NCBI GenBank assembly: GCA_964474705.1
Contig: CAYYUI010000040.1
Location: forward strand, 1-44,678
Reading direction: 5' to 3'
DNA length: 44,678 nt
DNA from: an uncultured bacterium
GTDB taxonomy: Bacteria; Muiribacteriota; Ozemobacteria; Ozemobacterales; Ozemobacteraceae
Shown here in pieces: positions 2,281 through 43,783 of this stretch. The number at the start of each line of letters is the position of its first letter. Within the stretch, counting starts at the first letter, position 1. The position numbers and the translations under genes were made by a program. Under the pieces are notes generated by a model. It saw nothing but the letters and a program-made list of their open reading frames with translations. It was not told the DNA's origin and ran no database searches.

Positions 2281-2590
2281 CATTGTCTATTGACCAGGGC
2301 AAACGCTTACTTTATTCCCATGTAATGAGGCTTACAGGCATGGCAGGCGATTGCATAAGCGATGCTTATCGAGCACTCCATAATCCCCTGCAAGCGATGC
2401 CGCTAAGACCGGACGTTTTGCCTGGAGGGCAAAACGCGGGCGATTGTCGCAGGATGCGACTTAGAGCCCGTGTTCCGGTCGTGCGTGCAGAGCAAGCAGA
2501 TGGGATTATGAGAGTGCGAAAATCGCAGAGCGTTGCAACGACTGACATGCCGTAATACGCGGTCTAGAAAGAAAAAGGTTCCCGTTTGCC
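2281..2590 (+). repeat. copy A of a roughly 310 bp conserved intergenic element (candidate structured RNA or regulatory module)
   Basis: About 85% identical to the reverse complement of 25667-25980; contains the hairpins CGTTTTGCC-N5-GGCAAAACG and GTCGC-AGGAT-GCGAC. Confidence 0.6.
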
Positions 2591-2598
2591 CTGGTCTA

Positions 2599-2627
2599 TT
2601 GACATGGCAATCAGTAAGTTATATAAT
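2599..2627 (+). promoter_or_regulatory. sigma70-type promoter for the ABC exporter operon (TTGACA-17-TATAAT)
   Basis: Perfect consensus hexamers with a 17 nt spacer, located about 40 nt upstream of the leader ORF. Confidence 0.55.
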
Positions 2628-2665
2628 TCTGCCGTTATCGAAGCTAATTAACAGGAGGCCTTACC

Positions 2666-2719
2666 ATGATCAATGCATTTTTTTACCGACCGGCCTCCAT
2701 TGGCGCGAACTCTCTTTAA
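2666..2719 (+). CDS. 17-aa leader peptide uORF (MINAFFYRPASIGANSL)
   Basis: AGGAGG lies 7 nt before the ATG; it sits between the promoter and the terminator hairpin upstream of the ABC exporter. Confidence 0.4.
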   Translation: MINAFFYRPASIGANSL

Positions 2720-2736
2720 CCGATTTTGTCTGCAAG

Positions 2737-2774
2737 AGCGGGTTGCCTGATGGTGGCAGCCCGCTTTTCTTTTA
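2737..2774 (+). terminator. intrinsic terminator / attenuator in the ABC exporter leader
   Basis: 11 bp stem AGCGGGTTGCC / GGCAGCCCGCT with one G-U wobble, followed by UUUUCUUUU; the exporter start codon is 39 nt downstream. Confidence 0.55.
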
Positions 2775-2812
2775 CCCCTTTTTTTACCTGAGACAAAGAC
2801 AAACAAACACAG

Positions 2813-4633
2813 ATGCAAAAAAACAACAGCAAATCAGTTCTGAAAAGAATTCTTCCATATTTCAGGCCGCACCTCGGCAGTCTGGGTATTGCGATTTTCA
2901 CGATGATCGTCGTCACCGCCGTGCACCTGCTTCGGCCGATGATTCTGCGCACCATTATCGATACGGCTATTCCCGCCCGCGATATCAACATGGCACTTGG
3001 TTACGCGGGTTTCTTCGTCGGCTGTCTGGTTATCGGCGCTATTGCTATGTACGTGCGTGTCAAGATCATGGCCCGTATCGGCGCCGAAGTGGTAGCCGAA
3101 ATCAAGCGCCGCCTGTTTTCGCATATTCTTGGCCAGGGCATGCGCTTCTTCGATCAGAACCAGACCGGTAAGCTGATAACCCGAAGTGAATCAGATGCCA
3201 ACCAGTTGAAGTCAATGTTCACCCAGTCGACTGCTCAGCTGGTGGCCAGCATCATGCTGATCGTCGGAACCATTTTCGTGCTGATGCGCGAAGATGTCAG
3301 AATTGGCATCGTCGCAATGTTCTCGCTTGTGATCGTCGGTCTGGTCATGTTCTTTTACCTGACCTACATCCGCACTCTTTATACGAAGGTGCGCGAAAAA
3401 AACAGCGCTCTGACTGGCTATCTGGCCGAATATATTCAGGGTGTGCCGCTGATCAAGGTGCACGGGCGCGAAAACGACATAATGAACAACATGCGTGCTC
3501 ACAGTCAGGAAAAGGCACAACTCGAGTGCAAAGCCGCCTTTATTGAATACACGCTGTTTTCTTCGGCGTTCCGCTTCTGCACTGAAATTGGTGTGCTGAT
3601 GCTGCTGTTCGCCTATTGCAGCAGTCGGGTCTACGCCGGCACCATGAGCGTCGGAACCCTGGTGATGTTCATGGAACTGCTGCGGCAGTTCTTCAGACCG
3701 CTCGAGTTTCTCATCGAAGTGCTTGCCCAGTTGCAGTCGGCTCTGGCTGCCGGCGTGCGCGTCTTCGACATTCTCGATACCGAACCGGCCGTTAAAGATG
3801 CAGGCCAGCCGACGCCCGGGCTGCGCTTGCAGCATGAAATCGCCTTTAACGATGTTTCGTTTGCCTATGACAGCGAAGTCGTTCTGAAAAATGCTGTCTT
3901 CAGCATTCCCCGGGGCCAGCAGCTGGCGATCGTCGGAGCGTCAGGTTCAGGCAAGACAACCTGCGTCAACCTGCTGCTGCGTTTCTATGACCCTACTTCC
4001 GGCAGTATCAGCGTCGATGGCCGCGATATTCGCAGCATCAGCCTCGAAGACTGGCGCCGCAATATTGCCCTGGTTCTTCAGGAAATCTACCTGTTTCCGG
4101 GCACGATCATGGAAAACCTCAAGGCTTTTCATACCGATGTCGCTGATGAAGTCGTCATTAAAGCGGCTAAAGAGCTGGGAGCGCATGATTTTATCATGCG
4201 GCAGAGCAATGGCTATGAAACGATGCTGGCCGAGCGGGGTGCCAACCTGTCTTATGGCGAGCGACAGCTGCTTTCGTATACCAGAGCGATGGTCAAGAAC
4301 CCTGATCTTCTCATTCTCGACGAGGCTACTTCATCAGTCGACGTCATTACCGAGCGCGAACTGCAGGCCAGTATGGAAAAGCTCATGCAGGGCCGCACTT
4401 CGATCGTCATCGCCCATCGTCTTGCCACGATCAGAAAGGCCGATCGCATTCTGGTCTTTGAAAAGGGCAGTCTGATTCAGAGCGGTGACCATCTGACCCT
4501 GATGAATCGGGAAGGGATCTATCGCGAACTCGTCAATATCCAGACCGCCGGCCGTGGCGCCCCGGCCGTGATCTGTGAAGGCGGTGCCGGCGAAGAAGCC
4601 GTGGCGGCCGCACCGGCAGGAGCTGTAGCATGA
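2813..4633 (+). CDS. ABC transporter permease/ATP-binding protein (type I exporter half-transporter)
   Basis: Six-TM N-terminal domain; Walker A GASGSGKT; signature LSYGERQ; Walker B LILDEATS; H-loop present. Confidence 0.9.
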   Translation: MQKNNSKSVLKRILPYFRPHLGSLGIAIFTMIVVTAVHLLRPMILRTIIDTAIPARDINMALGYAGFFVGCLVIGAIAMYVRVKIMARIGAEVVAEIKRRLFSHILGQGMRFFDQNQTGKLITRSESDANQLKSMFTQSTAQLVASIMLIVGTIFVLMREDVRIGIVAMFSLVIVGLVMFFYLTYIRTLYTKVREKNSALTGYLAEYIQGVPLIKVHGRENDIMNNMRAHSQEKAQLECKAAFIEYTLFSSAFRFCTEIGVLMLLFAYCSSRVYAGTMSVGTLVMFMELLRQFFRPLEFLIEVLAQLQSALAAGVRVFDILDTEPAVKDAGQPTPGLRLQHEIAFNDVSFAYDSEVVLKNAVFSIPRGQQLAIVGASGSGKTTCVNLLLRFYDPTSGSISVDGRDIRSISLEDWRRNIALVLQEIYLFPGTIMENLKAFHTDVADEVVIKAAKELGAHDFIMRQSNGYETMLAERGANLSYGERQLLSYTRAMVKNPDLLILDEATSSVDVITERELQASMEKLMQGRTSIVIAHRLATIRKADRILVFEKGSLIQSGDHLTLMNREGIYRELVNIQTAGRGAPAVICEGGAGEEAVAAAPAGAVA

Positions 4634-6483
4634 AACACGAAAAACGCAAAGACCTCAGACACACCCGTGCCTACTACATAAAATGGATCTGGAACGAATA
4701 CCGCCCGCACTGGCGGATGGTAATGTTTCTGCTCTTTCTGACCTTTCTGTCGACGATCATCGCGGTGCTGTTTCCGATGGTGCTCAAGCATATCATCGAC
4801 AGTCTCGTCACGGGTCTTAAAAGCTTTCAGGCCGGAACCACCAGCGTCGAAGCGGCCCAGGGAGAACGTAACCGCATGCTGCTTATGCTGCTGGCCATGG
4901 GTCTGGGTCCGGTGTTTTCTGGCATTTACCCCTATTTCAGGGCCCGCATGAACGTGACTTTCGAAATGTACTTTCGCGAAAGATTCTTTGCCGAAATACT
5001 CTCAAAGGGGCACCGGTTCTTTCTTAAATTCAGAACCGGCGATCTGGTTACCCGTCTGACCGAAGACATCAGAACCAACCCGCCCGGGCTGTCGTGGCTG
5101 TGCTGTTCAGGCATCTTCAGGGCCGTCAACTCGGCGAGCATCATCTTTTTCTGCGTGATTTCGATGGCTCTGCTGCACTGGAAACTGGCGCTCGTCGCCT
5201 GTATTCCGCTGCCGATCATGCTGTTCATCTTTATCAAGCTCGAAACAAGTTTCGGCGAAACCTTCAAAGAAGCCCAGGAGGGTATGTCCGAGGGTAATGA
5301 TTTTCTCGAAGCCGCTTATTCGGGTGTCAAGATCATCGCCTCGTTCAATGCCCGTCAGCCGCAGCAGCGTCTGTTCGACAAGCTGCTCGAAAAGCGTATC
5401 GGTCAGGAAATCAGAGTCGACAGCCTCTGGGGCCTCTTCATGGTCTTCTTCGAATTTCTCAACTACGTCGGTGAGATCATGGTGCTGATTTTCGGTGGAA
5501 TAATGGTCATCAGAGGCTCGTTGACGCTCGGAACCTACTATGCCTTCTTCAGCTATCTCGGCATGATCATCTACCCGCTGATGGACATTCCGATGATGCT
5601 GGTAACCCTTACGCAGGCCTGCGTGTCGATCGACCGTCTCGAAGACATGCAGCAGGCCGACCGGGCCTGGCAGGAACTCGATGTCGACGGCAGCACTGAA
5701 ATAGCAACCATCGAAAGCCTGAGCTTTGAAAACGTCAGTTTCAGGCACAGCACTCTCGAAAAACTTGAAAAGCCGGAAGCCACGGCCACTGGTGGCGAGG
5801 AGAAAGTCGAACAGGAACCATTTGCATTCGACAATCTCAACTTCACCATCCGCAAAGGTGAAAAAGTTGCGATTGTCGGTCAGATCGGTTCGGGCAAGAC
5901 TACATTGCTGAACCTGATTTCCGGGGTTATGAAGCCAGACGGAGGCACTGTGACTATCAACGGTCTGCCGTTGCCGGAAATCAGAAAGCAGTCGTTCCGT
6001 GACAAGATCGGCTACATTCAGCAGGAACCGGTTATCTTTTCCGAGTCGATCCGCACCAACATCGACTTCTGGCGCAATCAGAGTGACGAGCTGATTCAGT
6101 CATGCGCACGCCTGGCCCAGTTTGACCGCGAAGTTCTGTCTTTTCCCGGCGGTTACACCGAGCCGGTCGGCCAGCGCGGTGTCACGCTCTCAGGCGGTCA
6201 GCGTCAGCGCCTGTCGATTGCGCGCGCCCTGGTCGGTCGCCCGCAGCTGCTGCTCATGGACGACATCACCGCCAGTCTCGATGCGGCAAACGAGAAGAAA
6301 CTCTGGGCCGACCTCGACCGGGAATGCGGTTCCATAACCTGCCTGATCGTCACGCACCGCATGGCGACCGCAATGATGGCCGACCGCATCATCGTCCTGA
6401 AAGATGGCCGCATCGAAGCGACCGGCACCCATGATGAGCTGATGCAGAGCTGCGAGACCTACCGCCATCTGTCCCACGCATAA
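4630..6483 (+). CDS. ABC transporter permease/ATP-binding protein (second half-transporter, heterodimer partner)
   Basis: ATGA start/stop overlap with the upstream gene; TM domain; Walker A GQIGSGKT; signature LSGGQRQ; Walker B LLMDD. Confidence 0.9.
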   Translation: MKHEKRKDLRHTRAYYIKWIWNEYRPHWRMVMFLLFLTFLSTIIAVLFPMVLKHIIDSLVTGLKSFQAGTTSVEAAQGERNRMLLMLLAMGLGPVFSGIYPYFRARMNVTFEMYFRERFFAEILSKGHRFFLKFRTGDLVTRLTEDIRTNPPGLSWLCCSGIFRAVNSASIIFFCVISMALLHWKLALVACIPLPIMLFIFIKLETSFGETFKEAQEGMSEGNDFLEAAYSGVKIIASFNARQPQQRLFDKLLEKRIGQEIRVDSLWGLFMVFFEFLNYVGEIMVLIFGGIMVIRGSLTLGTYYAFFSYLGMIIYPLMDIPMMLVTLTQACVSIDRLEDMQQADRAWQELDVDGSTEIATIESLSFENVSFRHSTLEKLEKPEATATGGEEKVEQEPFAFDNLNFTIRKGEKVAIVGQIGSGKTTLLNLISGVMKPDGGTVTINGLPLPEIRKQSFRDKIGYIQQEPVIFSESIRTNIDFWRNQSDELIQSCARLAQFDREVLSFPGGYTEPVGQRGVTLSGGQRQRLSIARALVGRPQLLLMDDITASLDAANEKKLWADLDRECGSITCLIVTHRMATAMMADRIIVLKDGRIEATGTHDELMQSCETYRHLSHA

Positions 6484-30272: not shown

Positions 30273-30316
30273 GCCAGTTATTGACTCCTGTAAAAACAAA
30301 ATAGAGTATGTTCGAC

Positions 30317-30348
30317 GACCCGGCATATCAGCCGGGTTGCTTTTTTTT
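30317..30348 (+). terminator. intrinsic terminator
   Basis: Stem GACCCGGC/GCCGGGTT followed by a T8 run. Confidence 0.6.
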
Positions 30349-43639: not shown

Positions 43640-43783
43640 CGCACTTCGGCTGATATGCCGGGCCGTCGAACAAACTCTATTTTGTTTTTGCAGGATCCAA
43701 TAATGCCGATTTGATTTCTTGCTCTTCCTGTATTGGGCAATTTGGTGTATAAATGACTATTAATCCATTGTCGGGAGTGAACC

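Follow-up and report, generated by a model that had tools for sequence, protein, structure and literature searches.

The question raised by this locus is how a short leader may control the two-gene ATP-binding cassette (ABC) exporter operon that follows it (2813-6483) in an uncultured bacterium of the Ozemobacteraceae. Our study takes as its window the whole stretch of 44,678 nucleotides of contig CAYYUI010000040.1. A preliminary description of this DNA had interpreted the promoter, the small upstream open reading frame (uORF) and the terminator that precede the first ABC gene as a leader-peptide attenuator, in an arrangement like that of BmrB/BmrCD. Our computational analysis supports the attenuator itself, based on the conservation of the uORF and on an alternative helix, H2, that is preserved through compensatory changes. 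We consider it probable, from comparisons and folding models, that the leader is a ribosome-dependent (leader-peptide) transcription attenuator that controls a two-gene heterodimeric ABC exporter operon.

The promoter, the 17-codon uORF with its Shine-Dalgarno (SD) sequence, the hairpin with its U-tract and the ABC gene beginning at 2813 were all recovered base for base as previously described, in this order and on the plus strand. The sigma-70-type promoter (2599-2627) consists of TTGACA (2599-2604), a 17-nt spacer and TATAAT (2622-2627), and its 12/12 agreement with the consensus is the sole one in the first 9 kb, where eight other promoter-like matches score 9/12. From its position, transcription would begin at about 2634. 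From the terminator to the ABC start (2766-2812), a promoter scan gave no promoter-like match. The SD region of the uORF, which we call segment A (2651-2660), provides the 5' strand of a helix, H1, and contains AGGAGG (2653-2658) 7 nt before the ATG at 2666. The uORF (2666-2719) comprises 17 codons and the stop TAA (2717-2719) and encodes MINAFFYRPASIGANSL. Within it, codons 7-13 form the switch segment B (2686-2702), with the core GCCUCCAUU at 2693-2701 and the upstream extension CCGACCG; the GCCUCC motif of this segment corresponds to codons 10-11. The intrinsic terminator (2737-2774) begins 17 nt after the end of the uORF and is made up of the 5' arm AGCGGGTTGCC (2737-2747), the loop TGATGGT (2748-2754), the 3' arm GGCAGCCCGCT (2755-2765) and the U-tract TTTTCTTTT (2766-2774). 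Its stem of 11 bp is G+C-rich and includes one G-U pair, and the hairpin by itself has a predicted energy of -24.8 kcal/mol. The fold predicted for the leader RNA (2634-2815) reaches -48.5 kcal/mol (z = -2.96), and none of 200 shuffled sequences was equally stable. The ABC start at 2813 is essentially unpaired in this fold, and it lacks an SD and lies in an A/U-rich context of the ACAAACACAGATG type, as seen in the region 2795-2815 and in the orthologs of all lineages.

Special attention was given to the conservation of this layout in related loci. A scan of a genome collection with the first ABC gene identified 18 loci with 70-96% protein identity, nearly all of them annotated as Candidatus Riflebacteria, Rifleibacterium or Ozemobacteraceae; 17 of these include the upstream region. 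The same order was present in all 17: a near-consensus promoter, GGAGG, an ATG-initiated reading frame of 17-22 codons, a G+C-rich terminator and the ABC gene. A pattern scan of metagenomes contributed at least five true leaders (L036, L072, L093, L102 and L107), which make up 5 of 120 stretches among the matches listed, the remaining ones there being mostly unrelated terminators, and two more leaders (L149 and L150) were found through proteins with 69% and 66% identity. The promoter-uORF-terminator-ABC layout is present in 24 of 24 loci (17 genome orthologs, 5 metagenome loci and the 2 further loci), down to an ABC identity of 66%. The conservation of the uORF, which had been proposed as a check on the attenuator, was likewise found in every one of the 24, together with its SD. 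In all the orthologous leaders, boxes resembling TTGACA-~17 nt-TATAAT occupy the equivalent position, the uORF stops 13-20 nt 5' of the terminator, and the terminator has a stem of 11-14 bp that is conserved with compensatory changes; in the 17 genome orthologs the ABC gene begins 47-289 nt beyond the terminator. Because the whole layout recurs in every close orthologous locus examined, the arrangement is more than a chance association.

The spacer between the terminator and the ABC start has peculiarities of its own in some relatives. A second tiny reading frame with an SD of the GGGAGA/AGGAGA type is found there in L008-L013, L016-L018, L093, L102 and L107 (for example, MNKSNKTRNC, MNISGTPKS and MVKFKF), followed in L107 by a strong hairpin; it is absent from the window and could be a further tier of control, possibly translational. 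In L004, L006, L007 and L072 the spacer extends to ~260-290 nt and contains G+C-rich repeat units (GCGCCAGGATGGCGCAACGCAGCGGAGGCCAGGGATGGCCGGGAGTCGCGTCAGC...) and a hairpin-rich insert; these expanded spacers look like repetitive extragenic palindromic (REP)-like or miniature insertions.

What has been conserved in the uORF, the peptide or the RNA? Over its 17-22 codons, the uORF frame contains no in-frame stop in 17 distinct leaders, whereas the two alternative frames contain 16 and 12. In all 17, the sequence GGAG(G) precedes the ATG by 7-10 nt, a spacing that we treat as constant, and GGAGG is invariant in one of our alignments (A2). The differences in uORF length between clades are multiples of three. 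The N-terminal residues vary freely, even between close relatives (MINAFFYRP, MYKNPILCVI, MLINTFAKNQSF, MVFINYHVINS and MTILIFNAFPTRAK), and the stretch from the ATG to segment B, of 27-42 nt, varies in both sequence and length. The only universally conserved motif of the uORF is the RNA string GCCUCC, usually read as Ala-Ser; in L149 it is retained in another frame, which gives TPPLC instead of ASIC. No run of identical or rare codons conserved across clades was found in the comparison of the leaders. Since the open frame and the SD spacing have been kept while only GCCUCC is shared, and is once frame-shifted, the comparison indicates that translation of the uORF is maintained and that the conserved information resides in the RNA and not in an arrest peptide. 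The sensor probably reads the position of the ribosome rather than a specific arrest peptide, because the N-terminal peptide is not conserved. A full GGAGG accompanies the uORF in every leader, and the use of SD sequences elsewhere in the window is mixed. A run of 7-8 U within the uORF (2676-2682, the Phe5-Phe6 codons) is conserved at the nucleotide level in one clade only (the window, L001-L007, L036 and L072); it could be a site of polymerase pausing or slippage, or could reflect a peptide motif, FF[YH][RS], at the edge of the predicted ON range.

An alternative structure that overlaps the uORF could not be resolved by eye in the preliminary description; it was identified here, and it is conserved with compensatory changes. 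In the minimum-free-energy (MFE) fold, helix H1 pairs GGAGGCC (2654-2660) with GGCCUCC (2692-2698) and GCUAAU (2643-2648) with AUUGGC (2699-2704), and its core is 99% paired across 22 leaders. Helix H2 pairs the same segment B (2693-2701) with a 3' strand formed by the terminator loop and the start of the 3' arm (2749-2757, of which 2755-2757 belong to the arm), and is extendable to 2686-2702 with 2748-2764. The leader can be described as four segments with the pairings A:B, B:(loop + 3' arm) and 5' arm:3' arm; segment B with its upstream extension is similar to the terminator 5' arm (..UUGCC), as is the SD region (GGAGGC) to the loop and 3' arm. In the window, H2 joins GCCUCCAUU with GAUGGUGGC (8/9 pairs), and in the L008 clade it joins UUGCCUCCAU with AUGGAGGCAA (10/10 pairs). 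The two sides change together across lineages, as CCAU/AUGG, CCGU/AUGG, UUCGU/ACGAA, UUCGUAU/AUACGCA, CCCUG/CAGGG and CCCUU/AAGGG, and three pairs have changed on both sides, with A-U, G-C and C-G types at one position and C-G to U-A at another. Pairing in H2 reaches 88-89% over the alignments and drops to 33-51% when its 3' partner is slid by 1-3 columns, and the covariation score of H2 was matched by 0 of 500 and 6 of 500 shuffles. The uORF forms its best duplex with the loop plus 3' arm through the same segment in 15 of 15 lineages and, when the 5' arm is blocked and a ribosome is placed on the AUG, B partners the loop and 3' arm in 21 of 22 leader folds. We infer that H2 and the remaining terminator stem would be mutually exclusive in the modelled structures: no linker nucleotide lies between the 3' strand of H2 and the rest of the 3' arm, so that the stem would be excluded, a pseudoknot with a zero-length linker being sterically excluded. 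A conventional antiterminator with the terminator 5' arm was not consistently found by eye, a search to which no separate folding of transcripts truncated ahead of the 3' arm was added.

Other elements of the leader were considered separately from this model. A small hairpin, CUGAA...UUCAG, covers the stop codon in most relatives; the window and L002 lack it, and for this reason it was left out of the core model. The binding of a CsrA-type protein to a GGA in the loop was dropped as a candidate, since the loop reads GGU in the window clade and GAAAGG in other clades.

To relate the two helices to translation, folding was repeated with ribosomes at defined positions. For the nascent RNA, the transcript of 15 lineages was ended 3 nt into the 3' arm, immediately before closure of the terminator becomes possible. 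In all 15, a ribosome at the AUG leads to pairing of the loop with B. With no ribosome this pairing occurs in three of the 15 (L011, L107 and L149) according to partner positions, or in five by stricter scoring; B is held in H1, and in most of the other lineages the loop pairs locally with the 5' arm. The ribosome was also moved codon by codon, only the RNA downstream of it being folded. In all 15 lineages, the antiterminator is predicted for P-site codons 1 to ~6 (up to 8-13 where the N-terminal part is longer) and the incipient terminator for P-sites at later codons. This downstream-only folding gives a clean pattern, whereas a variant of the scan that lets H1 close around the ribosome gives ragged ones.

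These predictions suggest a mechanism that would operate as follows. A single promoter (2599-2627) would drive a leader RNA in which B has two mutually exclusive partners (H1 and H2) and in which the uORF is presumably translated. With no ribosome, H1 would form once B has been transcribed, B would be locked, the terminator would form and transcription would stop at ~2772-2775, leaving the operon OFF. A ribosome at codon 7 or later, or one that has finished, would either cover B or let H1 re-form behind it, and the terminator would also form (OFF). A ribosome held on the start codon or on the first ~6 codons while the terminator is being transcribed would block A and leave B free. The free B would then capture the emerging terminator loop and continue its pairing into the initial bases of the 3' arm; this would exclude the terminator stem, and transcription would read through into the ABC genes (ON). 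The decision would be kinetic, and its natural signal would be the arrest of early translation.

It is necessary to consider the results that weigh against this attenuator. At equilibrium, the full-length leader keeps the terminator with a probability of 0.998-0.999 when the ribosome mask is placed at every codon. A purely thermodynamic switch was rejected for this reason, and any switch must be kinetic, as in other attenuators, because the terminator is always formed at equilibrium. In addition, the antiterminator is the MFE fold of the partial transcript without a ribosome in at least three of the 15 lineages (five by the other scoring). Helix H1 shows no covariation in the 22 leaders, because the SD is invariant. 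In the window, H2 contains a U-U mismatch and is weak (-12.5 kcal/mol), no better than with shuffled uORFs (p = 0.62); as a consequence of this single-sequence result, we have put the weight on positional conservation and covariation, which themselves come from only ~9-10 independent lineages. It is also unusual for an antiterminator to seize the loop and 3' arm and not the 5' arm. The support for the attenuator as a whole consists of computational prediction for an uncultivated organism. Finally, the leader was not found at four ABC homologs with 55-64% identity, of which one has a short plain 5' untranslated region and one lies within another operon.

The absence of the leader from these more distant homologs indicates a lineage-specific addition that belongs to one sub-lineage of Riflebacteria. 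A scan with covariance models detected no Rfam family at gathering score in the window, and a permissive scan of 2150-2900 gave for the leader only sub-threshold matches driven by the terminator (e.g., L20_leader, 17.6 bits against a gathering score of 58.7). Given that no Rfam match exists, the leader is a previously uncatalogued, lineage-specific attenuator family of a known class.

Within this class, the classical attenuators of amino-acid operons (trpL type) follow a 1:2 / 2:3 / 3:4 pairing logic. The leader described here resembles them in having four segments with mutually exclusive pairings, in which the position of the leader ribosome would decide the outcome and a ribosome at the stop codon would favor termination. 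It differs in that segment 1 is the SD of the uORF itself, in that its antiterminator is of a '2:4' type, formed with the loop and 3' arm while the 5' arm is looped out, instead of following a 2:3 pairing, and in that it has no runs of regulatory codons, the permissive stall being placed at the very beginning of the uORF. The closest parallel in layout is bmrB-bmrCD of Bacillus subtilis (Reilman et al. 2014), where, according to the sections of that study on the leader (PMC4191407), translation of the leader ORF and three alternative stem-loops gate terminator read-through with ribosome-targeting antibiotics as the trigger, read-through requires leader translation, and BmrB is an ORF of 53 amino acids with the terminator inside its coding region. 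Both systems have one promoter, a leader ORF, an intrinsic terminator and two heterodimeric ABC genes with one degenerate ATP site; both also have three alternative stem-loops, and our modelled layout predicts the same need of translation for read-through. The differences are also clear: the uORF of the window has 17 codons, ends 17 nt before the hairpin at 2737 and shows no apparent sequence relationship to the BmrB leader; the gene order is reversed with respect to bmrC-bmrD, the subunit with the catalytic Glu coming first, and the genes are homologs and not demonstrable orthologs; the window proteins are nearer to TmrAB and TM287/288 among solved bacterial half-transporters; and the host belongs to Candidatus Riflebacteria and not to the Firmicutes. 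The leader is analogous, not homologous, to bmrB-bmrCD, and it does not belong to the bmrB family because the size of the uORF, the placement of the terminator, the gene order and the nearest ABC relatives differ. The BmrB/BmrCD-like arrangement of the preliminary description consequently holds as an analogy but not as a homology.

Other antibiotic-responsive leader attenuators have been identified by term-seq or at ARE-ABCF genes, among them lmo0919, vmlR and msrD (Dar et al. 2016, as summarised in PMC5418344; PMC9226507, PMC10314930). They share with the window a short uORF and a terminator 5' of a resistance-type ABC gene, and we count as a further likeness that, in the summaries given by these sources, read-through occurs when a drug-bound ribosome stalls early in the uORF. 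Unlike the leader of the window, which precedes a membrane exporter in an uncultivated phylum, they serve soluble ABCF ribosome-protection factors or belong to Gram-positive organisms, and their inducers are known as far as those accounts go, whereas an inducer for the window is deduced. The erm, cat and cmlA leaders also encode a short leader peptide, on which, as outlined in PMC5418344, a drug-stalled ribosome remodels the downstream RNA; in that outline they act translationally, by unmasking the SD of the resistance gene, whereas here the target is an intrinsic terminator and the sequestered SD is that of the leader itself. A translational attenuator of the erm/cat type was ruled out for the window, because in every lineage the ABC start lacks an SD, and it is not sequestered.

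Which signal would the ribosome convey? Because of the analogy with bmrB-bmrCD and with the other antibiotic-responsive leaders, ribosome-targeting antibiotics would be the likeliest one. The predicted logic corresponds to the behavior expected of a sensor of early-translation inhibitors and agrees with the lack of a conserved arrest peptide. A more specific version of this proposal, which we advance tentatively and which may well prove wrong, is a sequence-independent, three-way sensor of early arrest in which GCCUCC, as a mimic of the anti-SD, would either close its own ribosome-binding site or capture the loop and 3' arm with the 5' arm looped out; inhibitors of the peptidyl transferase center or of the initiation phase would turn the exporter ON, and the leader would represent the first drug-responsive attenuator family outside Gram-positive models. 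The same attenuator could answer instead to translational capacity, to transcription-translation coupling or to starvation (the stringent response or a shortage of charged tRNA), which we regard as rather unlikely. The predicted ON range is set solely by the position of the ribosome at codons 1 to ~6 and the N-terminal peptide is unconserved, both of which would fit such a general signal, as would the UUU-UUU (Phe-Phe) at codons 5-6 within the 7-8 U run that one clade keeps, and the sensitivity of bmrB attenuation to rare codons mentioned in PMC4191407. However, the clades share no conserved run of identical or rare codons, the operon encodes an exporter and not a biosynthetic or translation function, and the precedents known for leaders of exporter and ABC genes respond to ribosome-targeting drugs, to the extent that PMC4191407 and PMC5418344 describe them.

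Two further explanations dispense with the uORF as a sensor of ribosome position. The small ORF might be a genuine gene for a secreted or signalling peptide handled by the exporter, a leaky terminator setting a high ratio of peptide to transporter, as occurs after bacteriocin structural genes. A small ORF with a strong SD directly 5' of an exporter invites this idea, and most versions contain one or two Cys and a moderately conserved C-terminal half (ASICAADL, ASIGANSL). Nevertheless, GCCUCC is kept at the RNA level in a different frame in L149, the N-terminal half varies freely even between close relatives, and the conserved codons are exactly those complementary to the SD and to the terminator loop, with which they covary. 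The peptide gene is very improbable in view of this frame change, of the free N-terminus and of the way in which the conserved codons coincide with both pairing partners, and neither exporter subunit has a peptidase domain nor are there modification genes nearby according to the domain annotation. We give even less credence to an RNA switch independent of translation, in which either H1 or H2 would be stabilised through binding of a protein or small ligand, with the uORF incidental. Its appeal is that the conserved parts are RNA motifs (GGAGGC, GCCUCC and the loop) that form alternative helices, but there is no Rfam match, and the clade-specific changes in length are multiples of three. The 27-42 nt between the ATG and B are variable in sequence and length, which leaves no conserved pocket, while the reading frame has stayed open and its ATG, stop position and SD spacing have been kept, and this combination is what makes the ligand switch so unlikely. 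A leader-peptide attenuator that responds to the ribosome on the uORF is the reading that we retain.

The regulated genes, both on the plus strand, encode two half-transporters with ABC_membrane and ABC_tran domains. The first (2813-4633, 606 aa) is TmrA/TM288/BmrD-like, with the Walker B motif LLILDE, which contains the catalytic Glu, and the degenerate signature LSYGE; the second (4630-6483, 617 aa) is TM287/BmrC/TmrB-like, with Walker B LLLMDD, where Asp replaces Glu, and the canonical signature LSGGQ. The start of the second gene overlaps the stop of the first in an ATGA at 4630-4633. Among solved bacterial half-transporters, the nearest to the first gene product is TmrA (E 1e-102), followed by TM288 and BmrD/YheH (BmrD, E 1e-84), and the nearest to the second is TM287, followed by BmrC/YheI and TmrB. 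An exact-match query with the first gene product gave no recorded protein, although the entry P0001 of our homolog listing is identical to it. Judging by these motifs in the two proteins, the pair forms a heterodimeric ABC exporter in which one ATP site is degenerate and the other is of the consensus type. This combination is the hallmark of the TM287/288, TmrAB and BmrCD class, and the earlier assignment to a heterodimeric exporter is borne out by the two domain-fused half-transporters and their asymmetric ATP-site motifs. The flanking genes, for a flavodoxin/4Fe-4S protein upstream and an S9 peptidase downstream, are oppositely oriented, and the ABC pair is therefore a self-contained operon.

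To our knowledge, attenuators of resistance or efflux genes that respond to drug-stalled ribosomes have been documented almost entirely in Firmicutes models. The present case is a conserved leader family in a candidate phylum known only from metagenomes, and for the trigger of its exporter it provides a specific hypothesis, open to testing in a heterologous host. The geometry of the antiterminator, in which capture of the loop and 3' arm is combined with sequestration of the leader's own SD, departs from the classical 2:3 pairing. The promoter-uORF-terminator part of ~140 nt, predicted to be ON only with a ribosome at codons 1-6, could serve as a biosensor of early-translation inhibitors. If the early-arrest sensor is real, natural translation inhibitors would be suggested as substrates or stressors for this clade of exporters.

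The region upstream of the leader has been remodelled by an insertion. What the preliminary description called a conserved element is an insertion of 300 nt at 2295-2594 (within 2285-2604), upstream of the promoter, that resembles a miniature inverted-repeat transposable element (MITE). It is bounded by terminal inverted repeats of 11 bp (CAGGGCAAACG / CGTTTGCCCTG) and by a target duplication of 10 bp (GTCTATTGAC), and the nearest relative, L002, has an uninterrupted empty site with no insertion. The element was inserted within the -35 hexamer of the ABC leader promoter; as TTGACA is re-created by the duplication, the promoter core survives while everything upstream has been replaced. On the far side lies the flavodoxin/4Fe-4S gene (minus strand), whose listed ORF (1410-2279) starts with TTG at 2279; an ATG is also present at 2216. 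This ATG and the comparison with L002 suggest that the true start is 2216, in which case the divergent intergenic region, insertion included, would span 2217-2598.

A second full-length copy of the element was identified at 25667-25958 on the minus strand (nhmmer, E 1e-56; 88% identity over 214 nt), flanked by the near-duplicate TATAGAGCAAAA / TATGAGCAAAA, and a partial copy is present in L102. The second copy lies between a terminator and a promoter-like TTTGCA-17-TATAAT that precedes a gene for a DUF819 membrane protein (24393-25622, minus). Both full-length copies adopt a single long rod as their predicted fold (-107 kcal/mol consensus), and four differences between them are compensatory. 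Inside the first copy, 2418-2482 (minus) gives a borderline match to the Bacillaceae-1 RNA (RF01690; 35.4 bits against a gathering score of 35, E 1e-4), obtained with permissive filters only, that may be due to chance; the matching stretch contains two hairpins with UCCU/UCCA loops. A separate pair of inverted repeats of 57 nt (30278-30334 / 43647-43703), 91% complementary and 13 kb apart, contains a promoter-like stretch of the TTGAC... type.

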